The notes below the pieces were generated by a model, which was not told the origin of the DNA, searched no databases, and saw only the letters and a program-made list of their open reading frames with translations. Shown in pieces: positions 1 through 19,389 of a stretch of DNA of 64,000 bases. The position numbers and the translations under genes are program-made. Numbering within the stretch: position 1 is the first letter of the stretch; each line of letters starts with the position of its first letter. Source of the DNA: Escherichia coli (GTDB lineage Bacteria > Pseudomonadota > Gammaproteobacteria > Enterobacterales > Enterobacteriaceae); assembly GCF_046105845.1 (NCBI RefSeq), contig NZ_CP151004.1. One strand, given 5' to 3'.

Positions 1-2270
1 AGTTAAAACAAAGTGCACTTGATTTCCATGAATTTCCAGTTCCAGGGAAAATCCAGGTTTCTCCAACCAAGCCTCTGGCAACGCAGCGCGATCTGGCGCT
101 GGCCTACTCACCAGGCGTTGCCGCACCTTGTCTTGAAATCGAAAAAGACCCGTTAAAAGCCTACAAATATACCGCGCGCGGTAACCTGGTGGCGGTGATC
201 TCTAACGGTACGGCTGTGCTGGGGTTAGGCAACATTGGCGCACTGGCAGGCAAACCGGTGATGGAAGGCAAGGGCGTTCTGTTTAAGAAATTCGCCGGGA
301 TTGATGTATTTGACATTGAAGTTGATGAACTCGACCCGGACAAATTTATTGAAGTCGTCGCCGCGCTCGAACCAACCTTCGGCGGCATCAACCTCGAAGA
401 CATTAAAGCGCCAGAATGTTTCTATATTGAACAGAAACTGCGCGAGCGGATGAATATTCCGGTATTCCACGACGATCAGCACGGCACGGCAATTATCAGC
501 ACTGCCGCCATCCTCAACGGCTTGCGCGTGGTGGAGAAAAACATCTCTGACGTGCGTATGGTGGTTTCCGGCGCGGGTGCTGCAGCAATCGCCTGTATGA
601 ACCTGCTGGTCGCGCTGGGTCTGCAAAAACATAACATCGTGGTTTGCGACTCAAAAGGCGTTATCTATCAGGGCCGTGAGCCAAACATGGCGGAAACCAA
701 AGCCGCATATGCGGTGGTGGATGACGGCAAACGTACCCTCGATGATGTGATTGAAGGCGCGGATATTTTCCTGGGATGTTCCGGCCCGAAAGTGCTGACC
801 CAGGAAATGGTGAAGAAAATGGCCCGTGCGCCAATGATCCTGGCGCTGGCGAACCCGGAACCGGAAATTCTGCCGCCGCTGGCGAAAGAAGTGCGTCCGG
901 ATGCCATCATCTGTACCGGCCGTTCCGACTACCCGAACCAGGTGAACAACGTTCTTTGCTTCCCGTTCATCTTCCGTGGCGCGCTGGACGTTGGCGCAAC
1001 CGCCATCAACGAAGAGATGAAACTGGCGGCGGTACGCGCGATTGCAGAACTGGCCCATGCGGAACAGAGTGAAGTGGTGGCTTCAGCTTATGGCGATCAG
1101 GATCTGAGCTTTGGTCCGGAATACATCATTCCAAAACCATTTGATCCGCGCTTGATCGTTAAGATCGCTCCTGCGGTCGCTAAAGCCGCGATGGAGTCGG
1201 GTGTGGCGACGCGTCCGATTGCTGATTTCGACGTCTACATCGACAAGCTGACGGAGTTCGTTTACAAAACCAACCTGTTTATGAAGCCGATTTTCTCCCA
1301 GGCTCGCAAAGCGCCGAAGCGCGTCGTTCTGCCGGAAGGGGAAGAGGCGCGCGTTCTGCATGCCACTCAGGAACTGGTAACGCTGGGGCTGGCGAAACCG
1401 ATCCTTATCGGTCGTCCGAACGTGATCGAAATGCGCATTCAGAAACTGGGCTTGCAGATCAAAGCGGGTGTTGATTTTGAGATCGTCAATAACGAATCCG
1501 ATCCGCGCTTTAAAGAGTACTGGACTGAATACTTCCAGATCATGAAGCGTCGCGGTGTCACTCAGGAACAGGCGCAGCGTGCATTGATCAGTAACCCGAC
1601 AGTGATCGGCGCGATCATGGTTCAGCGTGGCGAAGCCGATGCAATGATCTGCGGTACGGTGGGCGATTATCATGAACATTTTAGCGTGGTGAAAAATGTC
1701 TTTGGTTATCGCGATGGCGTTCACACCGCAGGTGCCATGAACGCGCTGCTGCTGCCGAGTGGTAACACCTTTATTGCCGATACATACGTCAATGACGAAC
1801 CAGACGCAGAAGAGCTTGCGGAGATCACCTTGATGGCGGCAGAAACTGTTCGTCGTTTTGGTATTGAGCCGCGCGTGGCTCTGTTGTCGCACTCCAACTT
1901 TGGTTCTTCTGACTGCCCGTCGTCGAGCAAAATGCGTCAGGCGCTGGAACTGGTCAGGGAACGTGCACCAGAACTGATGATTGATGGTGAAATGCACGGC
2001 GATGCAGCGCTGGTGGAAGCGATTCGCAGCGACCGTATGCCGGACAGCCCTTTGAAAGGTTCCGCCAATATTCTGGTGATGCCGAACATGGAAGCTGCCC
2101 GCATTAGTTACAACTTATTGCGCGTTTCCAGCTCGGAAGGTGTGACTGTCGGCCCGGTGCTGATGGGCGTGGCGAAACCGGTTCACGTGTTAACGCCGAT
2201 CGCATCGGTACGTCGTATCGTCAACATGGTGGCGCTAGCCGTGGTTGAAGCACAAACCCAACCGCTGTAA
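1..2270 (+). CDS. maeB: NADP-dependent malic enzyme MaeB (malic enzyme domain plus phosphotransacetylase-like C-terminal domain); 5' end lies upstream of window
   Basis: Open frame from window edge to TAA 2268-2270; translation (..[27 protein letters not shown].. to ..VVEAQTQPL) recognised as MaeB; ORF-track entry 189..2270 is only the first internal Met. Confidence 0.95.
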
Positions 2271-2289
2271 TTCATTCTTAACTCTCACG

Positions 2290-2320
2290 CTTACCCTGAA
2301 TATTCAGGGTAAGCGGTTTT
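2290..2320 (+). terminator. Rho-independent terminator after maeB
   Basis: Inverted repeat cttaccctg..cagggtaag followed by cggtttt, 20 nt after maeB stop. Confidence 0.75.
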
Positions 2321-2562
2321 CCTGAAATATATTAGCAAAGTTTATTACTGAGTTTGCGAATAATAAAAAAAGCAGTATATAAATTATCTCGATATTATTT
2401 TATTTATATTCATGCCTCGCATATGAAAGTTTATTCATAACAGTAAATATCTCTCCATTCTTAGTGATCTACCTCACCTTTTAAACGCGCTTGCCGAATT
2501 TTGTTATTTACTCTGACGAAAAATTGTCACGATACACGAAAGTTTTTCACAGGCGGCGACTC
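2321..2562 (+). promoter_or_regulatory. AT-rich upstream region of the eut operon (expected main eut promoter / EutR-responsive region)
   Basis: About 240 bp of strongly AT-rich non-coding sequence directly upstream of eutS; exact -35/-10 and EutR site not resolved by eye. Confidence 0.4.
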
Positions 2563-2898
2563 ATGGATAAAGAACGCATCATTCAGGAATTTGTGCCCGG
2601 TAAACAGGTCACACTGGCGCATCTCATCGCGCATCCCGGCGAGGAACTGGCGAAGAAAATCGGCGTTCCTGATGCGGGCGCAATCGGCATTATGACGCTA
2701 ACTCCCGGCGAAACGGCGATGATCGCCGGTGATTTAGCACTAAAAGCCGCCGATGTGCATATCGGTTTTCTCGACCGTTTTAGCGGCGCGTTGGTGATTT
2801 ATGGCTCGGTGGGTGCAGTAGAAGAAGCGTTATCACAAACCGTCAGCGGTTTAGGGCGTTTATTAAATTATACGCTTTGTGAAATGACCAAAAGTTAA
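2563..2898 (+). CDS. eutS: Ethanolamine-utilisation microcompartment shell protein EutS (BMC domain)
   Basis: 111-aa translation [29 protein letters not shown]..; first gene of eut cluster; upstream in-frame Met of ORF track (2491) rejected. Confidence 0.92.
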
Positions 2899-2910
2899 TA
2901 CGAGGCATTC

Positions 2911-3390
2911 ATGAAACGAATTGCGTTTGTGGGTACCGTCGGGGCAGGAAAAACAACGTTATTTAATGCGTTGCAGGGAGATTATACCCTCGCCAGAAAA
3001 ACGCAGGCCGTAGAATTTAATGATAAGGGCGATATTGATACGCCGGGTGAATATTTTAGCCATCCCCGCTGGTATCACGCCTTAATTACCACGCTACAGG
3101 ATGTGGACATGCTGATCTATGTCCATGGCGCAAATGACCCGGAAAGCCGATTGCCTGCCGGGTTGCTGGATATTGGCGTCAGCAAACGGCAAATCGCCAT
3201 CATCAGTAAAACGGACATGCCGGATGCTGACGTCGCCGCAACGCGAAAGTTATTGCTTGAGACGGGCTTCGAGGAGCCGATTTTCGAGCTAAACAGCCAC
3301 GACCCGCAAAGCGTGCAGCAACTGGTGGATTATCTGGCATCTCTCACCAAACAGGAGGAAGCAGGTGAAAAAACTCATCACAGCGAATGA
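2911..3390 (+). CDS. eutP: Ethanolamine utilisation protein EutP (P-loop NTPase)
   Basis: 159 aa, Walker A motif GTVGAGKTT near N-terminus; position between eutS and eutQ. Confidence 0.92.
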   Translation: MKRIAFVGTVGAGKTTLFNALQGDYTLARKTQAVEFNDKGDIDTPGEYFSHPRWYHALITTLQDVDMLIYVHGANDPESRLPAGLLDIGVSKRQIAIISKTDMPDADVAATRKLLLETGFEEPIFELNSHDPQSVQQLVDYLASLTKQEEAGEKTHHSE

Positions 3391-4066
3391 TATTCGTGAA
3401 GCACACGCGCGCGGCGAACAGGCAATGTCCGTGGTTCTGCGCGCCAGCATTATTACCCCGGAAGCCCGTGAAGTGGCAGATCTACTGGGTTTTACCATCA
3501 CTGAATGTGATGAATCGACCCCGGTAACGGCGTCCGTTCCCGCCAGCGTGCCAGCCGATAAAACCGAAAGCCAGCGCATCCGCGAAACCATCATCGCCCA
3601 GCTACCGGAAGGCCAGTTTACCGAAAGCCTGGTCGCGCAGCTGATGGAAAAAGTGATGAAGGAAAAACTGTCGCTGGAGCAGGGTGCAATGCAGCCGAGT
3701 TTCAAATCGGTGACCGGCAAAGGCGGCATCAAAGTTATTGATGGCAGCAGCGTCAAGTTTGGTCGTTTCGACGGCGCACAGCCACACTGCGTCGGATTAA
3801 CGGATCTGGTCACCGGAGACGACGGCAGCAGCATGGCCGCTGGTTTTATGCAGTGGGAGAACGCCTTCTTCCCGTGGACCCTGAACTATGACGAAATCGA
3901 CATGGTACTGGAAGGGGAACTGCACGTTCGCCACGAAGGCGAAACCATGATCGCCAAAGCAGGCGACGTGATGTTTATCCCGAAAGGCTCCAGCATCGAA
4001 TTTGGTACGACATCCAGCGTGAAATTCCTGTATGTCGCCTGGCCGGCTAACTGGCAATCCCTATGA
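3365..4066 (+). CDS. eutQ: Ethanolamine utilisation protein EutQ (cupin-fold)
   Basis: 233 aa; GTG start at 3365 preceded by aggaggaa SD; overlaps eutP 3' end; translation MKKLITANDIREAHARGEQ.. Confidence 0.9.
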   Translation: MKKLITANDIREAHARGEQAMSVVLRASIITPEAREVADLLGFTITECDESTPVTASVPASVPADKTESQRIRETIIAQLPEGQFTESLVAQLMEKVMKEKLSLEQGAMQPSFKSVTGKGGIKVIDGSSVKFGRFDGAQPHCVGLTDLVTGDDGSSMAAGFMQWENAFFPWTLNYDEIDMVLEGELHVRHEGETMIAKAGDVMFIPKGSSIEFGTTSSVKFLYVAWPANWQSL

Positions 4067-4866
4067 AAGATTTCATCACCGAAGCATGGCTAAGAGCGAA
4101 CCATACGCTCAGCGAAGGCGCAGAGATCCATCTCCCTGCGGACAGTCGCCTGACGCCCTCTGCCCGGGAGTTGCTGGAAAGCCGCCATCTGCGCATCAAG
4201 TTTATTGACGAGCAGGGCCGCCTGTTTGTTGACGATGAACAGCAGCAGCCGCAGCCCGTTCATGGGCTGACCAGTAGCGATGAACATCCGCAGGCGTGCT
4301 GCGAACTGTGCCGCCAGCCGGTGGCGAAAAAGCCGGATACGCTGACTCACCTGTCGGCGGAAAAAATGGTTGCCAAAAGCGATCCGCGTCTGGGTTTTCG
4401 TGCGGTTCTCGACAGCACCATTGCGCTGGCAGTGTGGCTGCAAATTGAACTGGCGGAACCGTGGCAGCCGTGGCTGGCGGATATCCGTTCGCGTCTTGGC
4501 AACATTATGCGTGCCGATGCGCTGGGGGAACCGCTGGGCGATCAAGCGATTGTCGGGCTTTCTGACGAAGATCTGCACCGGCTTTCTCATCAGCCGTTGC
4601 GTTATCTTGGTCACGATCATCTGGTGCCGGAAGCCAGCCACGGGCGCGATGCGGCGTTGCTGAATCTGCTACGCACCAAAGTGCGGGAAACCGAAACCGT
4701 AGCGGCGCAGGTGTTTATCACCCGCAGCTTTGAAGTATTACGCCCGGACATCTTGCAGGCGCTGAACCGCCTTTCCAGCACGGTCTACGTGATGATGATC
4801 CTGAGCGTAACGAAGCAGCCGCTAACGGTGAAGCAGATCCAACAACGACTGGGGGAAACGCAATGA
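4063..4866 (+). CDS. eutT: EutT corrinoid adenosyltransferase
   Basis: 267 aa; ATGA start/stop overlap with eutQ; position in eut operon. Confidence 0.9.
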
Positions 4867-5879
4867 TTATTGAACGTTGTCGTGAACTGGCGTTGCGAGC
4901 GCCCGCCACAGTGGTTTTTCCGGATGCGTTAGATCAACGTGTGCTGAAAGCTGCGCAATATTTACATCAACAAGGTCTGGCAACGCCCATTCTGGTCGCC
5001 AATCCGTTTGAACTTCGTCAGTTTGCGCTCAGTCACGGCGTGGCGATGGACGGGCTACAGGTGATAGATCCACATGGCAACCTCGCAATGCGGGAAGAAT
5101 TTGCCCATCGCTGGCTGGCCCGCGCGGGCGAAAAAACGCCGCCGGATGCGCTGGAAAAACTCACCGAACCGCTTATGTTCGCCGCAGCAATGGTCAGCGC
5201 CGGTAAAGCGGATGTCTGTATCGCGGGCAACCTCTCTTCCACGGCGAATGTGCTGCGTGCCGGATTACGCATTATCGGCTTGCAGCCAGGCTGTAAAACG
5301 CTCTCCTCCATTTTCCTGATGCTGCCACAGTACAGTGGCCCCGCATTGGGCTTTGCCGATTGCAGCGTGGTGCCACAGCCGACGGCGGCGCAGTTGGCGG
5401 ATATCGCGCTTGCCAGCGCCGAAACCTGGCGCGCCATCACCGGAGAAGAGCCGCGCGTGGCGATGTTGTCGTTTTCCAGTAACGGCAGCGCCCGTCACCC
5501 CTGCGTTGCCAATGTCCAGCAGGCGACAGAAATCGTCCGTGAGCGCGCGCCGCAGTTGGTAGTCGATGGCGAGTTGCAGTTTGACGCCGCCTTCGTGCCG
5601 GAAGTGGCGGCGCAAAAAGCGCCTGCCAGCCCGCTACAAGGCAAGGCCAATGTGATGGTTTTTCCGTCGCTGGAAGCCGGAAATATTGGCTACAAAATCG
5701 CACAACGACTCGGCGGATATCGTGCCGTCGGGCCATTGATACAAGGACTTGCCGCGCCGATGCACGATCTCTCTCGTGGTTGTAGCGTGCAGGAAATTAT
5801 CGAGCTGGCGCTGGTGGCAGCTGTGCCGCGTCAGACAGAAGTAAACCGTGAAAGCAGTTTACAAACACTGGTTGAATGA
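4863..5879 (+). CDS. eutD: EutD phosphotransacetylase (Pta family)
   Basis: 338 aa Pta-like translation; ATGA overlap with eutT. Confidence 0.92.
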
Positions 5880-5917
5880 ACGGTCCCGTTCTGGACCCTG
5901 ATAAAGAGGAAAGCACA

Positions 5918-6211
5918 ATGGAAGCATTAGGAATGATCGAAACCCGGGGCCTGGTTGCACTGATTGAGGCTTCTGACGCGATGGTTAAAGCTGCGCGCGT
6001 CAAGCTGGTTGGTGTTAAGCAGATTGGCGGCGGCCTGTGTACTGCCATGGTTCGTGGTGATGTTGCAGCCTGTAAAGCCGCGACCGACGCAGGTGCTGCA
6101 GCGGCACAGCGTATCGGCGAGCTGGTATCTGTACACGTTATCCCGCGTCCGCACGGCGACCTGGAAGAAGTCTTCCCGATCGGCCTGAAAGGCGATAGCA
6201 GCAACCTGTAA
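5918..6211 (+). CDS. eutM: EutM major microcompartment shell protein (BMC-H)
   Basis: 97 aa [28 protein letters not shown]..; SD aaagagga 8 nt upstream; ORF-track N-terminal extension (5876) rejected. Confidence 0.93.
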
Positions 6212-6317
6212 TCACCCTGTGTGACGTCGATTCGGGCGTCACGCTCTCTCCTTTTTCAGTTTACCTTCCGCGGAGGGTAGGGGGAGCTTTTACCTGAAAT
6301 ACGCCACGGAGGCGGGT

Positions 6318-6605
6318 ATGAAACTGGCAGTCGTCACTGGACAAATTGTTTGTACCGTACGCCATCACGGACTGGCGCATGACAAATTGCTGATGGTGGA
6401 AATGATTGATCCACAAGGTAATCCTGACGGGCAATGTGCCGTCGCCATCGACAATATTGGCGCGGGAACCGGGGAGTGGGTGTTGCTGGTGAGTGGCAGT
6501 TCTGCCCGCCAGGCGCATAAAAGCGAAACGTCACCGGTCGATCTGTGCGTGATTGGCATCGTCGATGAGGTGGTGTCTGGCGGTCAGGTAATTTTCCACA
6601 AATAA
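6318..6605 (+). CDS. eutN: EutN microcompartment vertex protein (BMC-P)
   Basis: 95 aa MKLAVVTGQIVCTVRHHGL..; follows eutM. Confidence 0.92.
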   Translation: MKLAVVTGQIVCTVRHHGLAHDKLLMVEMIDPQGNPDGQCAVAIDNIGAGTGEWVLLVSGSSARQAHKSETSPVDLCVIGIVDEVVSGGQVIFHK

Positions 6606-6616
6606 GGCAGAACATC

Positions 6617-8020
6617 ATGAATCAACAGGATATTGAACAGGTGGTGAAAGCGGTACTGCTGAAAATGCAAAGCAGTGACACGCCGCCCGCCGCCGTTCAT
6701 GAGATAGGCGTTTTCGCGTCCCTGGATGACGCCGTTGCGGCAGCCAAAATTGCCCAGCAAGGGTTAAAGAGCGTGGCAATGCGCCAGTTAGCCATTGCTG
6801 CCATTCGTGAAGCAGGCGAAAAACACGCCAGAGATTTAGCGGAACTTGCCGTCAGTGAAACCGGCATGGGCCGCATCGAAGATAAATTTGCCAAAAACGT
6901 CGCTCAGGCGCGCGGCACACCGGGCGTTGAGTGCCTCTCTCCGCAGGTGCTGACTGGCGACAACGGCCTGACTTTAATTGAAAACGCGCCCTGGGGCGTG
7001 GTGGCTTCGGTGACGCCTTCCACTAACCCGGCGGCAACCGTCATTAATAACGCCATCAGCCTGATTGCCGCGGGCAACAGCGTCATTTTTGCCCCGCATC
7101 CGGCGGCGAAAAAAGTCTCCCAGCGGGCGATCACGCTGCTCAACCAGGCGATTGTTGCCGCAGGCGGGCCGGAAAACTTACTGGTTACTGTGGCCAATCC
7201 GGATATCGAAACCGCGCAACGTTTGTTCAAGTTCCCGGGTATCGGCCTGCTGGTGGTGACCGGCGGCGAAGCGGTAGTGGAAGCGGCGCGTAAACACACC
7301 AATAAACGTCTGATTGCCGCAGGTGCTGGCAACCCGCCGGTAGTGGTGGATGAAACCGCTGACCTCGCCCGTGCAGCTCAGTCCATCGTCAAAGGCGCGT
7401 CTTTCGATAACAACATCATTTGTGCCGACGAAAAGGTACTGATTGTTGTGGATAGCGTAGCCGATGAACTGATGCGTCTGATGGAAGGCCAGCACGCGGT
7501 GAAACTGACCGCAGAGCAGGCGCAGCAGCTACAACCGGTGTTGCTGAAAAATATCGACGAGCGCGGAAAAGGCACCGTCAGCCGTGACTGGGTTGGTCGT
7601 GATGCGGCGAAAATCGCGGCGGCAATCGGCCTTACAGTTCCGGAACAAACGCGACTGCTGTTTGTAGAAACCACCGCAGAACATCCGTTTGCCGTGACCG
7701 AACTGATGATGCCGGTGCTGCCCGTCGTGCGCGTCGCCAACGTGGCGGATGCCATTGCGCTGGCGGTGAAACTGGAAGGCGGTTGCCACCACACGGCGGC
7801 AATGCACTCGCGCAATATCGAGAACATGAACCAGATGGCGAATGCCATTGATACCAGCATTTTCGTTAAGAACGGACCGTGCATTGCCGGGCTGGGGCTG
7901 GGCGGGGAAGGCTGGACCACCATGACCATCACCACGCCAACCGGTGAAGGGGTAACCAGCGCGCGTACGTTTGTCCGTCTGCGTCGCTGTGTATTAGTCG
8001 ATGCGTTTCGCATTGTTTAA
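6617..8020 (+). CDS. eutE: EutE CoA-acylating acetaldehyde dehydrogenase
   Basis: 467 aa aldehyde-dehydrogenase-like translation with N-terminal BMC-targeting-like helix; operon position. Confidence 0.92.
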   Translation: MNQQDIEQVVKAVLLKMQSSDTPPAAVHEIGVFASLDDAVAAAKIAQQGLKSVAMRQLAIAAIREAGEKHARDLAELAVSETGMGRIEDKFAKNVAQARGTPGVECLSPQVLTGDNGLTLIENAPWGVVASVTPSTNPAATVINNAISLIAAGNSVIFAPHPAAKKVSQRAITLLNQAIVAAGGPENLLVTVANPDIETAQRLFKFPGIGLLVVTGGEAVVEAARKHTNKRLIAAGAGNPPVVVDETADLARAAQSIVKGASFDNNIICADEKVLIVVDSVADELMRLMEGQHAVKLTAEQAQQLQPVLLKNIDERGKGTVSRDWVGRDAAKIAAAIGLTVPEQTRLLFVETTAEHPFAVTELMMPVLPVVRVANVADAIALAVKLEGGCHHTAAMHSRNIENMNQMANAIDTSIFVKNGPCIAGLGLGGEGWTTMTITTPTGEGVTSARTFVRLRRCVLVDAFRIV

Positions 8021-8030
8021 GGAGTAACCG

Positions 8031-8867
8031 ATGGCGCACGACGAACAATGGCTCACCCCACGTCTGCACATAGCGGCAACGCTGTGTAACCAGACGCCTG
8101 CCGCGACGGAATCTCCGCTGTGGCTGGGGGTGGATTTGGGCACCTGCGATGTGGTGTCGATGGTTGTTGACCGCGACGGTCAGCCGGTGGCGGTATGCCT
8201 CGACTGGGCTGATGTGGTCCGCGACGGCATCGTCTGGGATTTCTTCGGTGCGGTCACCATTGTTCGTCGCCATCTCGACACCCTCGAGCAGCAATTCGGT
8301 CGCCGTTTTAGCCATGCGGCGACCTCTTTTCCTCCAGGTACGGACCCGCGTATTTCCATCAACGTGCTGGAGTCTGCCGGGCTGGAAGTGAGCCATGTGC
8401 TGGATGAGCCAACCGCAGTCGCGGATCTGCTGCAACTGGACAACGCCGGTGTAGTGGATATCGGCGGTGGCACTACCGGCATTGCCATCGTGAAAAAGGG
8501 CAAGGTGACGTACTCGGCAGATGAAGCCACCGGCGGACATCACATCTCTCTGACTCTCGCCGGAAATCGTCGTATTTCGCTGGAAGAGGCAGAGCAGTAC
8601 AAGCGCGGTCACGGTGAAGAGATTTGGCCCGCGGTGAAACCGGTGTACGAAAAAATGGCGGACATTGTTGCCCGGCATATTGAAGGGCAGGGCATTACTG
8701 ATTTATGGCTGGCGGGCGGCTCCTGTATGCAACCGGGCGTGGCGGAACTGTTTTGCAAACAATTCCCGGCGTTACAGGTGCATCTACCGCAGCACAGTTT
8801 GTTTATGACCCCGCTGGCGATCGCCAGTAGCGGGCGAGAGAAAGCGGAGGGGATCTATGCAAAATGA
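8031..8867 (+). CDS. eutJ: EutJ Hsp70/actin-fold chaperone-like protein
   Basis: 278 aa; motifs DLGTCDV, VDIGGGTTGIA typical of actin/Hsp70 ATPase fold. Confidence 0.9.
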   Translation: MAHDEQWLTPRLHIAATLCNQTPAATESPLWLGVDLGTCDVVSMVVDRDGQPVAVCLDWADVVRDGIVWDFFGAVTIVRRHLDTLEQQFGRRFSHAATSFPPGTDPRISINVLESAGLEVSHVLDEPTAVADLLQLDNAGVVDIGGGTTGIAIVKKGKVTYSADEATGGHHISLTLAGNRRISLEEAEQYKRGHGEEIWPAVKPVYEKMADIVARHIEGQGITDLWLAGGSCMQPGVAELFCKQFPALQVHLPQHSLFMTPLAIASSGREKAEGIYAK

Positions 8868-10044
8868 ATTGCAGACCGCGCTCTTTCAGGCGTTCGATAC
8901 CCTGAATCTGCAACGGGTAAAAACATTTAGCGTTCCACCGGTGACGCTTTGCGGTCCGGGCGCGATGAGCAGTTGCGGGCAGCAAGCGCAAACGCGTGGG
9001 CTGAAACATCTGTTCGTGATGGCAGACAGCTTTTTGCATCAGGCGGGGATGACCGCCGGGCTGACGCGTAGCCTGGCCGTTAAAGGTATCGCCATGACGC
9101 TCTGGCCATGTCTGGTGGGCGAACCGTGCATCACCGACGTGTGTGCAGCCGTGGCGCAGTTGCGTGAATCGGGTTGCGATGGGGTGATCGCGTTTGGTGG
9201 TGGCTCGGTGCTGGATGCGGCAAAAGCCGTGGCGTTGCTGGTGACGAATCCCGATAGCACGCTGGCAGAAATGTCAGAAACCAGCATTCTGCAACCGCGC
9301 CTGCCGTTGATTGCCATTCCAACGACCGCCGGAACCGGCTCTGAAACCACCAACGTAACGGTGATTATCGACGCTGTGAGCGGGCGCAAGCAGGTGTTAG
9401 CCCACGCCTCGCTGATGCCGGATGTGGCGATTCTCGACGCTGCGCTGACCGAAGGCGTGCCGTCGCATGTCACGGCGATGACTGGCATTGATGCGTTAAC
9501 CCATGCTATTGAAGCGTACAGCGCGCTGAACGCGACACCGTTTACCGACAGCCTGGCGATTGGCGCAATCGCGATGATTGGTAAATCACTGCCGAAAGCG
9601 GTGGGCTACGGTCATGACCTTGCCGCGCGCGAGAGCATGTTGCTGGCTTCATGCATGGCGGGAATGGCGTTTTCCAGTGCGGGGCTTGGGTTATGCCACG
9701 CGATGGCGCATCAGCCGGGGGCGGCGCTGCATATTCCGCACGGTCTGGCGAACGCCATGTTGCTGCCAACGGTGATGGAATTTAACCGGATGGTTTGTCG
9801 TGAACGCTTTAGTCAGATTGGTCGGGCGCTGCGAACTAAAAAATCCGACGATCGTGACGCTATTAACGCGGTAAGTGAGCTGATTGCGGAAGTCGGGATT
9901 GGTAAACGACTGGGCGATATTGGTGCGACATCTGCGCATTACGGCGCATGGGCGCAGGCCGCGCTGGAAGATATTTGTCTGCGCAGCAACCCGCGTACCG
10001 CCAGCCTGGAGCAGATTATTGGTCTGTATGCTGCGGCGCAATAA
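8857..10044 (+). CDS. eutG: EutG iron-containing alcohol dehydrogenase
   Basis: 395 aa Fe-ADH-like translation; overlaps eutJ 3' end by 11 nt. Confidence 0.92.
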   Translation: MQNELQTALFQAFDTLNLQRVKTFSVPPVTLCGPGAMSSCGQQAQTRGLKHLFVMADSFLHQAGMTAGLTRSLAVKGIAMTLWPCLVGEPCITDVCAAVAQLRESGCDGVIAFGGGSVLDAAKAVALLVTNPDSTLAEMSETSILQPRLPLIAIPTTAGTGSETTNVTVIIDAVSGRKQVLAHASLMPDVAILDAALTEGVPSHVTAMTGIDALTHAIEAYSALNATPFTDSLAIGAIAMIGKSLPKAVGYGHDLAARESMLLASCMAGMAFSSAGLGLCHAMAHQPGAALHIPHGLANAMLLPTVMEFNRMVCRERFSQIGRALRTKKSDDRDAINAVSELIAEVGIGKRLGDIGATSAHYGAWAQAALEDICLRSNPRTASLEQIIGLYAAAQ

Positions 10045-10057
10045 AAGTGTACGGACA

Positions 10058-10160
10058 GTCCCCTCGCCCCTTTGGGGAGAGGGTTAGGGTGAGGGGAACA
10101 GAGTCGCGCCGGTGCAAACAATTACCCTCACCCCGGCCCCTCGGCTTCCAGAGTGAGGGA
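10058..10160. repeat. GC-rich palindromic intergenic repeat cluster (REP/BIME-like) between eutG and eutH
   Basis: cccctcgcccctttggggagagggttagggtgagggg ... ccctcaccccggcccctcgg; imperfect inverted repeats flanking a short spacer. Confidence 0.6.
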
Positions 10161-10213
10161 AAAACCCACTTTCAGCATTGGCAATAAATAACAACTAACA
10201 GGGAGTAAAGGTG

Positions 10214-11440
10214 ATGGGAATTAACGAAATCATCATGTACATCATGATGTTCTTTATGCTGATAGCTGCCGTAGACAGGATCCTGTCGCAGTTCGGTGGT
10301 TCTGCTCGTTTCCTCGGTAAGTTCGGTAAAAGTATCGAAGGATCAGGCGGGCAGTTTGAAGAAGGCTTTATGGCAATGGGCGCTCTGGGCCTGGCGATGG
10401 TCGGTATGACCGCGCTGGCACCGGTACTGGCTCACGTACTCGGGCCGGTAATTATCCCGGTTTACGAAATGCTCGGTGCAAACCCGTCAATGTTCGCCGG
10501 AACACTGCTGGCGTGCGATATGGGCGGGTTCTTCCTCGCCAAAGAGCTGGCGGGCGGCGACGTAGCAGCGTGGCTATACTCTGGGTTAATTCTCGGGTCG
10601 ATGATGGGGCCAACGATTGTGTTTTCCATTCCGGTGGCGCTCGGCATTATCGAACCTTCTGACCGTCGTTATCTGGCGCTCGGCGTGCTGGCGGGCATTG
10701 TGACCATTCCGATTGGCTGTATTGCTGGTGGTCTGGTTGCTATGTACTCCGGTGTGCAGATCAACGGTCAGCCGGTGGAATTCACCTTTGCGCTGATCCT
10801 GATGAACATGATCCCGGTACTTATCGTTGCGGTGCTGGTGGCGCTGGGGCTGAAATTCATCCCGGAAAAAATGATCAACGGCTTCCAGATCTTCGCCAAA
10901 TTCCTCGTTGCATTGATCACCCTCGGTCTTGCTGCCGCGGTAGTGAAATTCCTCCTTGGCTGGGAACTGATCCCCGGTCTGGATCCTATCTTTATGGCCC
11001 CTGGCGATAAACCCGGTGAAGTGATGCGCGCCATTGAAGTTATCGGTTCTATCTCCTGCGTTCTGTTAGGGGCGTACCCGATGGTACTGCTGCTGACTCG
11101 CTGGTTTGAAAAACCGCTGATGAGCGTCGGTAAAGTGCTGAATATGAACAACATCGCGGCAGCTGGCATGGTGGCAACGCTTGCCAACAATATCCCGATG
11201 TTCGGCATGATGAAGCAGATGGATACCCGCGGCAAAGTGATCAACTGTGCCTTCGCCGTTTCCGCTGCTTTCGCCCTGGGTGACCACTTAGGCTTCGCCG
11301 CTGCCAACATGAACGCCATGATTTTCCCGATGATTGTCGGCAAGTTGATCGGCGGCGTAACGGCGATTGGCGTGGCGATGATGCTGGTGCCAAAAGAAGA
11401 CGCGACCGCGGCCAAAACCGAAGTGGAGGCACAATCGTGA
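10214..11440 (+). CDS. eutH: EutH ethanolamine permease
   Basis: 408 aa polytopic membrane protein MGINEIIMYIMMFFMLIAAVD..; ATG at 10214 with ggag SD chosen over GTG at 10211. Confidence 0.9.
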   Translation: MGINEIIMYIMMFFMLIAAVDRILSQFGGSARFLGKFGKSIEGSGGQFEEGFMAMGALGLAMVGMTALAPVLAHVLGPVIIPVYEMLGANPSMFAGTLLACDMGGFFLAKELAGGDVAAWLYSGLILGSMMGPTIVFSIPVALGIIEPSDRRYLALGVLAGIVTIPIGCIAGGLVAMYSGVQINGQPVEFTFALILMNMIPVLIVAVLVALGLKFIPEKMINGFQIFAKFLVALITLGLAAAVVKFLLGWELIPGLDPIFMAPGDKPGEVMRAIEVIGSISCVLLGAYPMVLLLTRWFEKPLMSVGKVLNMNNIAAAGMVATLANNIPMFGMMKQMDTRGKVINCAFAVSAAFALGDHLGFAAANMNAMIFPMIVGKLIGGVTAIGVAMMLVPKEDATAAKTEVEAQS

Positions 11441-12840
11441 ACACTCGCCAGCTACTGAGCGTCGGTATCGATATCGGCACCACCACCACCCAGGTGATCT
11501 TCTCCCACCTGGAGCTGGTTAACCGTGCGGCGGTGTCGCAGGTGCCGCGCTACGAATTCATCAAACGCGAAATTAGCTGGCAAAGCCCGGTGTTCTTTAC
11601 CCCTGTCGATAAACAGGGTGGTTTAAAAGAAGCGGAACTGAAATCGCTGATTTTAGAGCAATATCAGGCTGCGGGCATTGCGCCGGAAAGCGTTGATTCT
11701 GGTGCCATCATCATCACCGGTGAAAGCGCGAAAACCCGCAACGCTCGCCCGGCGGTGATGACGCTCTCCCAGTCGCTGGGCGATTTTGTCGTCGCCAGCG
11801 CCGGGCCGCATCTCGAATCCGTGATCGCCGGTCACGGTGCCGGGGCGCAAACCCTTTCTGAACAACGGCTGTGTCGGGTCCTGAATATCGATATCGGCGG
11901 TGGCACCGCGAACTACGCCCTGTTCGATGCCGGAAAAATCAGCGGCACCGCCTGCCTCAACGTCGGCGGTCGCCTGCTGGAAACCGACAGCCAGGGGCGC
12001 GTGGTTTACGCTCATAAACCGGGGCAGATGATTGTGGATGAGTGCTTCGGTGCAGGCACTGACGCCCGTTCGCTGACCGGCGCGCAGCTGGTGCAGGTTA
12101 CCCGGCGGATGGCAGAACTGATTGTCGAAGTGATTGACGGAACGCTCTCGCCGCTCGCGCAGGCATTGATGCAAACCGGTTTGTTGCCCGCAGGTGTTAC
12201 GCCCGAAATCATTACGCTTTCTGGCGGCGTGGGCGAATGTTATCGCCACCAGCCCGCCGACCCGTTCTGTTTTGCCGATATCGGCCCGCTGCTGGCAACG
12301 GCGCTGCATGACCATCCGAGCCTGCGTGAGATGAACGTGCAGTTTCCGGCGCAAACCGTACGCGCCACGGTGATTGGCGCGGGTGCACATACCCTTTCGC
12401 TCTCTGGCAGCACAATCTGGCTGGAGGGCGTACAACTGCCGCTGCGCAATTTGCCGGTGGCGATCCCGATTGATGAAACGGATCTGGTGAGTGCCTGGCA
12501 ACAAGCGCTAATTCAACTGGATCTTTGCCCCAAAACTGACGCGTACGTGCTGGCGCTTCCCGCCTCGCTGCCTGTGCGTTACGCCGCGGTACTGACGGTC
12601 ATCAACGCGCTGGTCGATTTCGTCGCGCGTTTTCCGAATCCGCATCCCCTGCTGGTGGTGGCCGGGCAGGACTTTGGTAAAGCTCTGGGCATGTTGTTGC
12701 GCCCACAGCTACAACAACTCCCGTTGGCAGTCATTGACGAAGTGATTGTCCGCGCGGGGGACTATATCGACATTGGTACGCCTCTTTTTGGCCGATCGGT
12801 TGTGCCGGTGACGGTGAAATCACTCGCATTTCCTTCCTGA
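11437..12840 (+). CDS. eutA: EutA ethanolamine ammonia-lyase reactivase
   Basis: 467 aa; GTG start overlapping eutH stop; translation ..NTRQLLSVGIDIGTTTTQVIFS.. Confidence 0.9.
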   Translation: MNTRQLLSVGIDIGTTTTQVIFSHLELVNRAAVSQVPRYEFIKREISWQSPVFFTPVDKQGGLKEAELKSLILEQYQAAGIAPESVDSGAIIITGESAKTRNARPAVMTLSQSLGDFVVASAGPHLESVIAGHGAGAQTLSEQRLCRVLNIDIGGGTANYALFDAGKISGTACLNVGGRLLETDSQGRVVYAHKPGQMIVDECFGAGTDARSLTGAQLVQVTRRMAELIVEVIDGTLSPLAQALMQTGLLPAGVTPEIITLSGGVGECYRHQPADPFCFADIGPLLATALHDHPSLREMNVQFPAQTVRATVIGAGAHTLSLSGSTIWLEGVQLPLRNLPVAIPIDETDLVSAWQQALIQLDLCPKTDAYVLALPASLPVRYAAVLTVINALVDFVARFPNPHPLLVVAGQDFGKALGMLLRPQLQQLPLAVIDEVIVRAGDYIDIGTPLFGRSVVPVTVKSLAFPS

Positions 12841-12851
12841 GGGAACGACTT

Positions 12852-14213
12852 ATGAAACTAAAGACCACATTGTTCGGCAATGTATATCAGTTTAAGGATG
12901 TAAAAGAGGTGCTGGCTAAAGCCAACGAACTGCGTTCGGGGGATGTGCTGGCAGGCGTTGCAGCGGCAAGTTCACAGGAGCGCGTGGCGGCAAAGCAGGT
13001 GTTGTCGGAAATGACCGTAGCGGACATCCGCAATAATCCGGTGATTGCCTATGAAGATGACTGCGTGACGCGGCTGATTCAGGACGATGTTAACGAAACG
13101 GCCTACAACCAGATTAAAAACTGGAGCATCAGCGAACTGCGTGAGTATGTGCTAAGCGATGAAACCAGCGTGGACGACATTGCCTTTACCCGCAAAGGGC
13201 TGACCTCGGAAGTGGTCGCGGCGGTAGCGAAGATTTGCTCCAACGCGGACCTGATCTACGGCGCGAAGAAAATGCCGGTGATCAAAAAGGCCAATACCAC
13301 CATCGGTATTCCGGGCACCTTCAGCGCCCGCTTGCAGCCAAACGACACCCGTGACGACGTGCAAAGTATCGCCGCGCAAATCTACGAAGGGCTTTCCTTC
13401 GGGGTGGGCGATGCGGTGATCGGCGTTAACCCGGTGACTGACGACGTGGAAAACTTAAGCCGCGTGTTGGACACCATTTACGGCGTGATCGACAAATTCA
13501 ACATCCCAACTCAGGGCTGCGTGCTGGCGCACGTCACCACCCAGATTGAAGCGATCCGTCGTGGCGCACCAGGCGGGCTGATTTTCCAGAGTATCTGCGG
13601 CAGCGAAAAAGGGCTGAAAGAATTTGGCGTGGAGCTGGCGATGCTCGACGAAGCGCGCGCAGTGGGCGCAGAGTTCAATCGTATCGCCGGGGAAAACTGC
13701 CTCTACTTCGAAACCGGACAAGGTTCGGCGCTGTCTGCTGGCGCTAACTTCGGCGCAGACCAGGTGACGATGGAAGCGCGTAACTACGGGCTGGCGCGTC
13801 ATTACGATCCGTTTATCGTCAACACCGTGGTCGGCTTTATTGGGCCGGAGTATCTCTACAACGACCGCCAGATTATCCGTGCGGGCTTAGAAGATCACTT
13901 TATGGGTAAGCTGAGCGGCATCTCTATGGGCTGTGACTGCTGCTACACCAACCACGCTGACGCTGACCAGAACCTCAACGAAAACCTCATGATCCTGCTC
14001 GCCACCGCAGGCTGCAACTACATCATGGGGATGCCGCTGGGCGATGACATCATGCTCAACTATCAGACCACCGCATTCCACGACACTGCCACTGTGCGTC
14101 AGTTACTCAACCTGCGCCCGTCACCGGAGTTTGAACGCTGGCTGGAAAGCATGGGCATTATGGCAAACGGTCGCCTGACCAAACGGGCGGGCGATCCGTC
14201 ACTGTTCTTCTGA
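12852..14213 (+). CDS. eutB: Ethanolamine ammonia-lyase large subunit EutB
   Basis: 453 aa; begins 11 nt after eutA stop; recognised EutB translation. Confidence 0.95.
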   Translation: MKLKTTLFGNVYQFKDVKEVLAKANELRSGDVLAGVAAASSQERVAAKQVLSEMTVADIRNNPVIAYEDDCVTRLIQDDVNETAYNQIKNWSISELREYVLSDETSVDDIAFTRKGLTSEVVAAVAKICSNADLIYGAKKMPVIKKANTTIGIPGTFSARLQPNDTRDDVQSIAAQIYEGLSFGVGDAVIGVNPVTDDVENLSRVLDTIYGVIDKFNIPTQGCVLAHVTTQIEAIRRGAPGGLIFQSICGSEKGLKEFGVELAMLDEARAVGAEFNRIAGENCLYFETGQGSALSAGANFGADQVTMEARNYGLARHYDPFIVNTVVGFIGPEYLYNDRQIIRAGLEDHFMGKLSGISMGCDCCYTNHADADQNLNENLMILLATAGCNYIMGMPLGDDIMLNYQTTAFHDTATVRQLLNLRPSPEFERWLESMGIMANGRLTKRAGDPSLFF

Positions 14214-14233
14214 TGACGCGGAGATAACACATC

Positions 14234-15118
14234 ATGGATCAAAAACAGATTGAAGAAATTGTACGCAGCGTGATGGCGTCAATGGGACAAGCGGCCCCCG
14301 CGCCGTCAGAAGCAAAGTGCGCCACCACCTGTGCGGCACCGGTGACCTCGGAAAGCTGCGCGCTGGACTTAGGCTCTGCGGAAGCAAAAGCGTGGATTGG
14401 CGTTGAAAACCCGCATCGCGCAGACGTATTAACAGAACTGCGTCGCAGCACCGTGGCCCGCGTTTGTACCGGTCGTGCCGGTCCGCGTCCGCGTACCCAG
14501 GCGTTGCTGCGTTTCCTGGCCGATCACTCTCGTTCGAAAGATACCGTACTGAAAGAAGTGCCGGAAGAGTGGGTGAAAGCGCAGGGCTTGCTGGAAGTCC
14601 GCTCTGAAATTAGCGACAAAAATCTCTACCTGACTCGTCCGGATATGGGCCGCCGCCTGTGTGCAGAAGCTGTTGAAGCCCTGAAAGCACAGTGTGTTGC
14701 TAATCCGGACGTGCAGGTCGTTATTTCTGATGGCCTGTCAACTGATGCGATCACCGTGAACTACGAAGAGATCCTGCCACCGCTGATGGCGGGCCTGAAA
14801 CAGGCCGGGCTGAAAGTCGGTACGCCATTCTTTGTTCGTTATGGTCGCGTGAAGATTGAAGATCAGATCGGTGAGATCCTCGGCGCGAAAGTGGTGATCC
14901 TGCTGGTGGGGGAACGCCCGGGATTAGGGCAGTCAGAAAGTCTCTCCTGCTACGCCGTTTACTCGCCGCGTATGGCAACCACCGTTGAAGCCGATCGCAC
15001 CTGTATCTCTAACATTCACCAGGGCGGCACGCCGCCGGTTGAAGCCGCAGCCGTCATTGTGGATTTGGCGAAACGTATGCTGGAGCAGAAAGCATCCGGC
15101 ATCAACATGACCCGATAA
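14234..15118 (+). CDS. eutC: Ethanolamine ammonia-lyase small subunit EutC
   Basis: 294 aa; follows eutB. Confidence 0.93.
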
Positions 15119-15127
15119 GGAGGCATC

Positions 15128-15787
15128 ATGCCAGCTTTAGATTTGATTCGACCGTCGGTAACCGCCATGCGGGTGATTGCCTCCGTTAACGCCGAATTTG
15201 CGCGTGAACTGAAATTGCCGCCGCATATTCGTAGCCTTGGGCTGATTTCTGCCGACTCCGATGACGTAACCTACATTGCGGCTGACGAAGCGACCAAGCA
15301 GGCGATGGTCGAAGTGGTGTATGGCCGCTCGCTGTATGCGGGAGCTGCACACGGACCGTCACCGACTGCCGGTGAAGTGCTGATTATGCTCGGTGGGCCA
15401 AACCCGGCGGAAGTGCGTGCTGGTCTGGATGCGATGGTTGCGCATATTGAAAATGGCGCGGCTTTCCAGTGGGCTAATGATGCGCAAGATACGGCATTCC
15501 TGGCACATGTAGTTTCGCGTACCGGTTCTTATCTCTCATCAACCGCCGGGATCACGCTTGGCGATCCGATGGCGTATCTGGTGGCACCGCCGCTGGAAGC
15601 GACCTACGGCATTGATGCAGCCCTGAAATCTGCCGACGTACAGCTGGTGACCTATGTCCCGCCGCCGTCTGAAACCAACTACTCGGCAGCATTTTTAACC
15701 GGTAGCCAGGCCGCGTGTAAAGCAGCCTGTAACGCCTTTACCGATGCAGTGCTGGAAATCGCGCGTAATCCAATCCAGCGTGCGTAA
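15128..15787 (+). CDS. eutL: EutL microcompartment shell protein (tandem BMC domain)
   Basis: 219 aa; follows eutC. Confidence 0.92.
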
Positions 15788-15799
15788 CGGAGGTTGCCG

Positions 15800-16300
15800 A
15801 TGATCAATGCACTGGGATTGCTGGAAGTGGACGGCATGGTCGCCGCGATAGATGCAGCTGATGCCATGCTCAAAGCAGCTAACGTTCGTCTGCTCAGTCA
15901 CGAAGTGCTTGACCCTGGTCGCCTAACGCTGGTGGTGGAAGGCGATCTGGCGGCGTGTCGTGCGGCGCTGGACGCAGGTTGTGCTGCCGCGATGCGTACC
16001 GGGCGTGTCATCAGCCGTAAGGAGATCGGTCGGCCAGACGATGACACCCAGTGGCTGGTTACTGGCTTTAACCGCCAGCCGAAGCAACCCGTAAAGGAAC
16101 CCGACGCGCCAGTTATCGTCGCGGAATCTGCTGACGAGTTGTTGGCGCTGTTAACATCAGTACGTCAGGGAATGACGGCAGGAGAAGTGGCAGCCCACTT
16201 TGGCTGGCCGCTCGAAAAAGCCAGAAATGCGCTCGAACAGCTCTTTTCTGCCGGGACGTTACGTAAACGCAGTAGTCGTTATCGTCTCAAGCCCCATTAA
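15800..16300 (+). CDS. eutK: EutK microcompartment shell protein (BMC domain with C-terminal basic extension)
   Basis: 166 aa MINALGLLEVDGMVAAIDAADAMLKAANV..; ATG at 15800 with acggagg SD chosen over upstream TTG. Confidence 0.9.
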   Translation: MINALGLLEVDGMVAAIDAADAMLKAANVRLLSHEVLDPGRLTLVVEGDLAACRAALDAGCAAAMRTGRVISRKEIGRPDDDTQWLVTGFNRQPKQPVKEPDAPVIVAESADELLALLTSVRQGMTAGEVAAHFGWPLEKARNALEQLFSAGTLRKRSSRYRLKPH

Positions 16301-16345
16301 CCTGTCGGAGGTGCCGGGTGTCCTACAACACCCGGCATTAACATC

Positions 16346-17398
16346 ATGAAAAAGACCCGTACAGCCAATTTGCACCATCTTTATCATGAACCCTTACCCG
16401 AAAACCTGAAGCTCACGCCGAAGGTCGAAGTGGATAATGTTCATCAACGACAGACAACGGATGTCTATGAACATGCTTTGACGATTACCGCCTGGCAGCA
16501 GATTTACGATCAGCTGCATCCGGGCAAGTTTCATGGTGAATTTACGGAAATTCTACTCGATGATATTCAGGTTTTTCGTGAATACACCGGTCTGGCGCTG
16601 CGTCAGTCGTGCCTGGTCTGGCCGAACTCGTTCTGGTTTGGCATTCCGGCGACGCGCGGTGAGCAGGGATTTATCGGTTCGCAATGTTTGGGAAGCGCAG
16701 AAATTGCGACGCGCCCTGGCGGCACCGAGTTTGAATTAAGTACGCCGGACGATTACACGATCCTGGGCGTAGTGCTTTCTGAAGATGTCATCACCCGTCA
16801 GGCTAACTTTTTGCATAATCCGGATCGGGTATTACATATGCTGCGTAGCCAGTCGGCGCTGGAAGTGAAAGAACAGCATAAAGCCGCGCTGTGGGGCTTT
16901 GTCCAACAGGCGCTGGCGACATTTTGCGAGAACCCGGAAAATCTTCATCAGCCTGCTGTGCGTAAAGTGCTGGGGGATAATTTGCTAATGGCGATGGGGG
17001 CGATGCTGGAAGAAGCGCAGCCAATGGTGACGGCGGAAAGCATCAGTCATCAGAGTTACCGTAGATTACTTTCCCGCGCCCGTGAATATGTGCTGGAAAA
17101 TATGTCTGAGCCGGTGACGGTGCTGGACTTGTGTAATCAACTGCATGTCAGCCGCCGCACGCTACAAAACGCGTTTCACGCTATTTTAGGCATTGGCCCA
17201 AATGCGTGGCTGAAACGCATTCGCCTGAACGCCGTACGCCGCGAACTGATAAGCCCTTGGTCGCAAAGCACAACGGTAAAAGACGCAGCCATGCAGTGGG
17301 GATTCTGGCATCTGGGGCAATTCGCCACGGATTATCAGCAACTGTTTGCCGAGAAGCCGTCACTGACGCTGCATCAGCGGATGCGGGAATGGGGGTGA
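16346..17398 (+). CDS. eutR: EutR AraC-family transcriptional activator of the eut operon
   Basis: 350 aa with C-terminal AraC-type HTH; last gene of eut cluster. Confidence 0.92.
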
Positions 17399-17403
17399 GG
17401 GAG

Positions 17404-18306
<903 letters not shown>

Positions 18307-19176: not shown

Positions 19177-19389
19177 ACGGCCTGAGTTGTAATAATAAAG
19201 TTCCAGATGTTATATCGTATCGCGTAATCCGTTACGACCGTTTGCTGTTGAGAATTGTTTTACTTTTCATTTCAATAGTTGACAACTCCCCATTATGCCA
19301 CTTTTTCAACCGATTTTCGTCAGATATTGGCTAATTCGACCGTTCACGCCATAATCAGCCTTTTAACCCGCAAAAAGGTAACGAATACC

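Follow-up and report, generated by a model that had tools for sequence, protein, structure and literature searches.

A conserved two-hairpin RNA in the eutM-eutN spacer of the Escherichia coli ethanolamine utilisation operon: a possible leaky attenuator and message stabiliser

Leaky intrinsic terminators or attenuators follow the genes of several major structural subunits, including papA, other fimbrial major-subunit genes and gvpA. The papBA genes are a described case of such a leaky terminator or attenuator (PMC5927463). A second group of systems, known as selective RNA processing and stabilisation (SRPS) or differential operon decay, uses protective 3' stem-loops within operons to adjust the proportions of the subunits of a complex, and is represented by malE-malF, pufBALMX and the cip-cel cellulosome operon (PMC4423207, PMC5927463). 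In addition, repetitive extragenic palindromic (REP) elements between tandem genes stabilise the upstream message in the malEFG model (PMC5927463), and REPs have been reported to act both as partial terminators and as stabilisers of the upstream mRNA (bioRxiv 10.64898/2026.03.23.713779). Here we describe a candidate element of this type in the eut (ethanolamine utilisation) operon of Escherichia coli, on a stretch of 64,000 nucleotides from contig NZ_CP151004.1 (hereafter the window, to which all positions refer). The 106-nt spacer between eutM, which encodes the major hexameric shell protein of the Eut microcompartment, and eutN, which encodes the pentameric vertex protein, holds a structured intercistronic RNA of two hairpins. 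We put at about even the chance that this spacer is a cis-acting two-hairpin module, a leaky attenuator that also stabilises the 3' end of eut mRNA ending after eutM. The element is previously undescribed in the literature that we found, yet of a known type, that of attenuator and stabiliser hairpins. Our literature search, outside which the classic Salmonella eut sequence papers fell, returned no paper linking eutM or eutN to a terminator, to Term-seq or to mRNA stability.

The SRPS systems are among the closest to the eutM-eutN element. As in those operons, a stable stem-loop within a long operon stands right after the gene for the most abundant subunit of a multi-protein assembly; related species have kept the structure; and RNA of the upstream cistron is higher in at least one data set. 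The energies of the eut hairpins, -16 to -19 kcal/mol each, lie within the reported -6.6 to -31.8. In the eutM element, however, a processing site, a 3' end and a longer half-life of the upstream segment are putative. It also differs from the SRPS cases in having two tandem hairpins followed by a short U-tract, and it occupies a dedicated spacer, whereas Dar and Sorek reported most protective structures of E. coli from within the coding region downstream. Equally close are the dual elements of the REP class and of the related bacterial interspersed mosaic elements (BIMEs), such as REP325 in yjdMN (10.64898/2026.03.23.713779) and the malE-malF REP. These share with the eut element a position just past the stop codon of the upstream gene within an operon and presumably the effect, but the E. 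coli element is single-copy, has no REP consensus and carries a U-tract that REPs lack. The fimbrial and gvpA terminators likewise place a hairpin and a U-tract after the gene for the most-needed product, with read-through to minor subunit genes. In contrast, the eut U-tract is only 4 nt long, the stem is bulged and termination is putative; moreover, the downstream eut genes include those of abundant enzymes, where strong polarity would do harm.

The terminators controlled by EutV, an ANTAR protein, in Firmicute eut loci (PMC5821096) resemble the element in their hairpin-bearing untranslated gaps and two-hairpin look. ANTAR substrates consist of two hairpins with hexanucleotide loops, the second of which overlaps a terminator (PMC5821096). 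We rejected this assignment for the E. coli spacer. The loop of hairpin 1 ranges from 4 to 27 nt and that of hairpin 2 is 4 nt, the locus ends in eutR and has neither eutVW nor another ANTAR protein, and no alternative antiterminator fold is evident.

The spacer occupies positions 6212-6317 on the plus strand. It is bounded by eutM (5918-6211, stop codon TAA at 6209-6211; open reading frame (ORF) list and RefSeq annotation of the matching K-12 record) and by eutN (6318-6605; ORF list and RefSeq gene calls), both on the plus strand. Minimum free energy (MFE) folds place hairpin 1 at 6219-6244, starting 7 nt past the eutM stop codon, with 10 bp that include two G.U pairs and six G-C pairs. Its core stem joins 6221-6228 to 6235-6242 (GUGACGUC/GGCGUCAC), is extended in Escherichia by the pairs G6219-C6244 and U6220.G6243, and encloses the loop GAUUCG (6229-6234). 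The hairpin folds at -17.4 kcal/mol (z -4.28), 0 of 200 shuffles were as stable, and by stability it ranks within the top 14 of the 30-nt hairpins on the plus strand of the window.

Hairpin 2 (6243-6287, plus strand) was obtained from MFE folds and from an independent RNAalifold consensus. The outer stem pairs 6243-6250 (GCUCUCUC) with 6280-6287 (GGGGGAGC), and the inner stem pairs 6262-6268 with 6273-6279 around the tetraloop CGCG (6269-6272). An 11-nt bulge (6251-6261) holds a T-run at 6252-6256. Directly 3' of hairpin 2, on the same strand, follows the single-stranded linker UUUUACCUGAAAU (6288-6300), which contains the tract UUUU (6288-6291).

The folding is specific to the sense strand. 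Positions 6212-6300 fold at -33.9 kcal/mol (z -2.74) in the sense direction, whereas the antisense sequence reaches -19.1 kcal/mol (z +0.61), because the conserved G.U pairs, several of them invariant, as in hairpin 2, exist on the sense strand alone. This favours an RNA structure in the eut mRNA over a palindrome acting as DNA. A structure or terminator on the antisense strand was considered as well and is ruled out by its z score.

We scanned one genome per species, which gave 48 loci with EutN relatives and about 40 extracted eutM-eutN spacers. Both hairpins occur in Escherichia, the Citrobacter freundii group and Klebsiella spallanzanii. Hairpin 1 is kept in Buttiauxella, Yokenella and Entomohabitans, where the second hairpin is different or absent. 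In an alignment of 15 sequences, 92.6% of pair cells hold standard pairs, compared with 47-58% when the partners are slid by 1-3 columns. The eight core pairs of hairpin 1 are 100% paired in 14 sequences from six genera (slid controls 22-56%); one pair is found as C-G, U-A or U.G, and Yokenella shows a double change from G-C to A-U. The loop of hairpin 1 is diverse in length, ranging from 4 to 27 nt across genera, and is 6 nt in Escherichia only. The inner stem of hairpin 2 shows double changes from A-U to G-C and from C-G to U-A, and in the RNAalifold consensus its closing pair beside the U-tract (6243-6287) is G-C in Escherichia and C-G in seven of ten Citrobacter sequences.

Between Escherichia and Citrobacter, identity is about 90% over the 3' half of the spacer, which reaches from hairpin 2 up to the start codon, and the linker is invariant in the 15 sequences from Escherichia, Citrobacter and K. 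spallanzanii. The third codon positions of eutM and eutN, by comparison, have an identity of 0.60-0.72 between E. coli and Citrobacter. The four variants seen within Escherichia all lie in a loop, lie in the bulge or shorten a G-run. The spacer hairpins are under purifying selection and are more conserved than synonymous sites. A small ORF in the spacer (GTG at 6221, 19 codons, or CTG at 6294 in frame with eutN) was considered and rejected; the spacer lengths of 105, 106, 110, 114, 120 and 121 nt, together with a 1-nt linker deletion in two Citrobacter species, break any frame.

Within E. coli, 745 bases across eutM-eutN have a match in 5408 of 5426 complete genomes, at 95-99.7% identity. The spacer itself is found at one place per genome in 5407 of the 5426, and is a single-copy element belonging to no repeat family; a dispersed repeat or mobile element is ruled out by this count. 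Searches of Rfam gave no match at E<=10 in positions 5000-7500 and none at the gathering score in 1-20000.

Outside the hairpin-bearing lineages the same slot is filled differently. In many genera the hairpins are replaced by one to three palindromes of the REP/BIME type per spacer (GCCGGATAAG...CATCCGGC...GCCTAC). These REP-bearing spacers were found in Salmonella enterica subspecies arizonae and diarizonae, in K. pneumoniae, K. oxytoca, K. michiganensis and K. grimontii, and in C. koseri, C. amalonaticus, C. sedlakii, Pseudocitrobacter and Pluralibacter. The E. coli spacer has no REP words and, with its one place per genome, does not belong to this class. By analogy, private hairpins in E. 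coli and REPs in its relatives plausibly meet one and the same need and could stand in for each other. REP/BIME elements, which fill this slot elsewhere, are known as leaky terminators and stabilisers, and for the eutM-eutN structure too we find such a role the most plausible.

A stable stem-loop is present in all of the about 40 orthologous spacers, as expected of a protective structure conserved in related species. It starts about 4-12 nt past the eutM stop codon in every spacer examined (52-211 nt), and none of the lineages examined has a short or overlapping eutM-eutN junction. This pattern bears on whether the element might be a non-functional relic, either a fossil terminator of an ancestral operon boundary or a decayed insertion, that is carried harmlessly. 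Whole lineages have swapped the hairpins for unrelated REP elements, the Yokenella spacer has been trimmed to 52 nt, there is neither an Rfam family nor literature on the spacer element, and the RNA-seq effects described below are inconsistent between strains. However, a relic would hardly be conserved well above synonymous sites, acquire compensatory substitutions in three helices, remain near-universal and nearly invariant in 5407 E. coli genomes, and be matched by a stem-loop in every other spacer. We consider a relic unlikely.

A hairpin followed directly by a U-tract is found in four of the six hairpin-bearing genera. The tract follows hairpin 2 in Escherichia, Citrobacter and K. spallanzanii, and a U-rich tract directly follows hairpin 1 in Buttiauxella (CACC-UUUCUUUAA, tail score nT 3.6). 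In Entomohabitans there is only a weak UGUU after the second hairpin (nT 0.2). Judged from this comparison, the family-wide feature is the stem-loop after eutM, and the U-tract is an addition of particular lineages. The heptamer UUUACCU occurs twice in the E. coli spacer, at 6260-6266 in the 5' strand of hairpin 2 and at 6289-6295 in the linker, and Buttiauxella sp. A111 carries CUUCUUUUACCUGA directly after hairpin 1. The doubled heptamer and the position of the Buttiauxella tail suggest that hairpin 2 arose when a duplication or insertion separated an ancestral hairpin 1 from its U-rich tail.

The initial annotation had singled out a smaller feature of the spacer, GTGACG (6221-6226) and CGTCAC (6237-6242) separated by 10 nt and followed nine nucleotides later (6243-6251) by TTTTT (6252-6256). 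It proposed that this repeat and T-run form a partial terminator, which would match the EutM:EutN stoichiometry of the shell. Both are present, as inspection of the sequence and a repeat finder agree. The spacer is also one of the few long gaps of the operon, as had been stated: with eutM ending at 6211 and eutN starting at 6318, only the eutG-eutH junction is longer (166 nt in the window, 216 nt in the K-12 record), and all others are at most 45 nt or overlapping. As described, however, the 6-bp repeat is only weakly above chance, because a perfect 6-bp inverted repeat with a loop of 3-12 nt is present in 22% of the 106-nt segments of this sequence. Such a repeat with TTTTT within 12 nt occurs at about 10 loci on the plus strand of the 64 kb, among which the eutM-eutN site is the sole one within the eut operon. 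A generic terminator scan gave 28 sites, no excess over the 23.8 expected from shuffles. In our reading it is the comparative evidence that lifts the feature above chance.

What stands of the proposed partial terminator is a conserved sense-strand RNA structure right after eutM; what falls is the pairing of hairpin 1 with the T-run. Hairpin 1 is a G+C-rich stem-loop, as intrinsic terminators have, but no U-tract lies within 0-2 nt of its stem. The first 8 nt past the stem are UCUCUCCU, and the T-run starts 7 nt beyond the extended stem and 9 nt beyond the 6-bp core. The proximal tail, UCUCUCC, has a score of nT 2.0, or 0.7 if counted from the core stem, and the corresponding tail in Citrobacter scores 0.7. 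The T-run lies inside the bulge of hairpin 2 and thus belongs to that hairpin instead of forming a free tail behind hairpin 1; the whole pyrimidine tract after hairpin 1 is paired or bulged within this conserved structure. It is true that hairpin 1 is real, stable and conserved, that the consensus scan lists it as terminator-like, that the orthologous hairpin in Buttiauxella runs directly into a U-rich tract, and that RNA-seq of strain LF82 places eutM above eutN. Nevertheless, with this geometry and the expression data given below, we find it improbable that hairpin 1 and the T-run are a partial intrinsic terminator whose read-through sets the EutM:EutN stoichiometry.

The terminator-like geometry belongs to hairpin 2 and UUUU at 6288-6291, where the stem abuts the U-tract. 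The tail of hairpin 2, UUUUACCU, has 5 U in 8 nt and a score of nT 3.2, compared with 2.0 after hairpin 1. The U-tract and linker are a candidate site of 3'-end formation, either by weak intrinsic termination or by RNase E cleavage. The linker presumably fits the preference of RNase E for single-stranded A/U-rich sequence beside a structure. Any termination after hairpin 2 should be weak, because there are only four consecutive U and the stem is bulged. We also computed the d'Aubenton-Carafa d-score and discarded it, since it is uncalibrated with modern energy parameters and even the maeB terminator hairpin came out negative. The 12-bp hairpin downstream of maeB (2288-2328), presumably the maeB terminator, has a tail, GTTTTCCTGAAAT, that is much like that of hairpin 2, CTTTTACCTGAAAT. 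A search for similar tails allowing 2 mismatches gave 3 matches where 1.3 were expected, and the likeness may be coincidence.

Under the mechanism that we favour, RNA polymerase would transcribe hairpin 1 (6219-6244) and then hairpin 2 (6243-6287), and a minority of polymerases would terminate at the UUUU abutting the stem of hairpin 2. Alternatively or additionally, RNase E may cut the conserved linker. The two stable stem-loops would then cap the new 3' end and block 3'-to-5' exonucleases, and messages ending after eutM would accumulate relative to the rest of the operon, with most polymerases reading through to eutN-eutR. The formation of a 3' end at the spacer and its protection are inferred, whereas the data show the structures themselves, their strand specificity, their conservation and covariation, their single copy per genome and their replacement by REP/BIME elements elsewhere.

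Published expression data allow the size of such an effect to be judged. Proteomics of K-12 grown on ethanolamine and B12 gave relative amounts of 10 for EutD, 96 for EutM, 1 for EutN, 27 for EutE, 37 for EutB and 39 for EutL (PMC11334477). In LF82, reads per kilobase per million (RPKM) in minimal medium were 108 for eutD, 55 for eutM, 5 for eutN, 14 for eutE and 13 for eutJ, and with bile salts, when the operon is induced, 357, 177, 62, 149 and 147, respectively (PMC6379400). In EDL933, mean normalised counts per nucleotide were 0.99 for eutT, 1.17 for eutD, 3.71 for eutM, 2.58 for eutN, 0.65 for eutE, 0.41 for eutJ and 0.79 for eutB (PMC6199705 supplement; the length normalisation is ours and not that of the source).

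The higher eutM transcript level that the initial annotation had predicted is seen in these data, with eutM:eutN ratios of 2.9 in induced LF82, 11 in LF82 near background and 1.4 in EDL933. However, the induced ratios of 1.4-2.9 are far below the protein ratio of roughly 100:1, and termination therefore cannot set the stoichiometry. Strong polarity is ruled out because the downstream enzymes are abundant, with EutE, EutB and EutL at 27-39 against 1 for EutN; a terminator would act alike on every gene downstream of it and cannot lower eutN alone. Transcript-level attenuation is at most about 3-fold with the operon induced, and most of the EutM:EutN difference must arise at translation or later. 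The RNA effect is modest, about 1.4- to 3-fold when induced, and cannot alone yield the protein ratio. Most likely, the module is a matter of ordinary operon fine-tuning that explains a small part of that ratio.

The EDL933 data bear on stabilisation as distinct from termination. In this strain read density is highest at eutM, whose stop codon lies 7 nt ahead of the two hairpins, and exceeds that of the preceding gene, eutD, about 3-fold. Termination by itself cannot give such a peak over eutD, and a protected decay intermediate can. A scan of the plus strand from eutD to eutN found no consensus match to a promoter, which is weak evidence only, and an internal promoter in the spacer or in the 3' end of eutD was set aside on this weak evidence.

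Several observations weigh against the attenuator-stabiliser reading. The four-U tract and the 11-nt bulge in hairpin 2 are atypical of efficient intrinsic terminators. Yokenella and all REP-bearing spacers lack a U-tract, so intrinsic termination is not a function common to the family. The expression data sets are not in agreement: EDL933 has a high value for eutN as well (2.6) and shows its drop past that gene, and in LF82 eutN lies below both of its neighbours and induced eutE nearly equals eutM. No sense-strand eut 3' end is listed in the supplement of an E. coli Term-seq study (eLife 62438), in which the operon was uninduced. The stem sequence of hairpin 1 is more invariant than pairing alone demands. 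Finally, the REPs may have landed in this spacer as one of the few gaps tolerated in the operon.

Since the protein ratio of about 100 is far above the RNA ratio, a translational component must exist, and the module may instead act mainly on translation, by uncoupling eutN from ribosomes that terminate at eutM and setting a low rate of eutN initiation. The eutN initiation region (6302-6320, plus strand) comprises a Shine-Dalgarno (SD) sequence, GGAGG (6308-6312), and the ATG at 6318-6320. In the consensus fold a small weak hairpin, CGCC/GGCG, pairs 6302-6305 with 6311-6314 around the loop ACGGA, and 6291-6294 pair with 6315-6318, partly covering the SD and the start codon. Possible routes include SD-like decoys (GGAGGGUAGGGGGAG) locked in hairpin 2, the weak ACC...GGU and CGCC/GGCG pairing around the eutN SD, and binding of CsrA to the ACGGA loop and to a GGA at the apex of hairpin 2. 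The loop reads A-N-GGA, and the second GGA (6270-6276) lies about 35 nt upstream. Such an A-N-GGA loop is similar to the sites bound by CsrA, as is a pair of GGA motifs so spaced; the motifs might relate to the very low EutN protein level. The linker and the ribosome-binding site (RBS) are also invariant. On the other hand, the GGAGG stands at ideal spacing, 6280-6340 is less structured than shuffles (z +1.15), the third helix near the SD shows no compensatory changes, and REP-bearing species keep the same RBS with neither hairpin 2 nor the linker. Moreover, the low EutN value, from intensity-based absolute quantification (iBAQ), may in part be due to a 95-aa protein being hard to detect. A mainly translational role seems to us fairly unlikely, although somewhat less so than a relic.

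The invariance of hairpin 1 also raises the question of whether a protein recognises its sequence specifically, in the form of an RNA stem or of a DNA palindrome, or whether it is a general structural barrier. Six of the eight core pairs (UGACG/CGUCA and one C-G) are invariant in six genera, among which third-codon identity to E. coli drops as low as about 0.5, and the inner stem of hairpin 2, unlike this core, covaries freely. The repeat finder detects the palindrome GACGTC in each arm of hairpin 1. A domain of EutK resembles nucleic-acid-binding domains and is unexplained (PMC5821096). However, a loop of 4-27 nt between the half-sites is incompatible with a fixed-spacing dimer on DNA, the G.U pairs and the strand asymmetry point to RNA, and the hairpin 1 motif occurs once in the window. 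Salmonella and Klebsiella keep EutK although hairpin 1 has been lost there, and hence the two do not co-occur. A DNA operator of fixed spacing was rejected on the loop range and G.U pairs, and the broader idea of a specific recognition site is very improbable in our estimation. More doubtful still is the specific proposal that the hairpin 1 stem (GUGACG/CGUCAC) binds a microcompartment-associated or global RNA-binding protein, such as EutK, or CsrA through the GGA motifs. If it were true, protein binding at hairpin 1 would provide feedback on the fate of shell-protein mRNA, or would localise the eutM message to nascent compartments.

The remainder of the region is an eut operon, with gene positions taken from the ORF list and RefSeq gene calls. 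It follows maeB, which ends at 2270, and begins with eutS (2564-2898), eutP (2911-3390), eutQ (ending at 4066), eutT (4063-4866) and eutD (4863-5879). Downstream of eutN lie eutE (6617-8020), eutJ and eutG (ending at 10044), eutH (from about 10211), eutA, eutB, eutC, eutL and eutK in this order, and eutR (16346-17398). The eutG-eutH gap (10045-10210) holds a G+C-rich dispersed repeat (cccctcgcccctttggggagagggttagggtgagggg...ccctcaccccggcccctcgg) with a median of 17 matching places per E. coli genome; at least 80% of its 166 nt is covered by a match in just 303 of 5426 genomes, and Rfam gave no match to it. It resembles the 'Box C' repeats of E. coli. Unlike the eutM-eutN module with its single copy, the other long spacer of the operon is thus filled by a repeat that varies among strains.

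The 45-nt gap between eutK and eutR, directly 5' of this regulator gene, contains a strong symmetric hairpin, GGTGCCGGGTGTCCTACAACACCCGGCATT (16310-16339), that folds at -20.7 kcal/mol on the plus strand and -21.2 on the minus strand and may serve to limit read-through into eutR or to mark the P2 region. The eutA and eutB genes adjoin with an 11-nt gap (11437-14213) and no prophage between them, and the same adjacency is found in a RefSeq record labelled K-12 MG1655 (NZ_CP097882.1; 8956-11732). The reference MG1655 carries the CPZ-55 prophage at the eutA-eutB junction. A K-12 Term-seq table (eLife 62438 supplement) lists an antisense 3' end, with the low score of 946, in the 3' part of eutM at about 6141 on the minus strand (K-12 coordinate 2572217, + strand), just past an imperfect inverted repeat at 6152-6187; this implies antisense transcription across the spacer while the operon is off. 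In the species scan, contigs of 269-466 nt from assemblies labelled Gemelliphila, Prolixibacteraceae and Caballeronia carry eutN of the enterobacterial type, with 87-100% identity to E. coli EutN, and look like contamination of those assemblies.

The eutM-eutN finding opens no new kind of biology, and its interest lies mainly in the swap between hairpins and REPs and in the engineering of Eut shells. A single junction that carries a private two-hairpin element in some genera and REP/BIME elements in others is a natural experiment, and it suggests that, as attenuator-stabilisers, REPs and bespoke hairpins can substitute for each other in function. Stoichiometry controls the shape and closure of the shell in Eut compartments. 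If the module raises eutM mRNA relative to its neighbours, it would be one cis-encoded dial of shell-protein dosage in these microcompartments, and rebuilding Eut shells from eutSMNLK constructs, or transferring the operon between hosts, would require that the spacer be kept or deliberately replaced.

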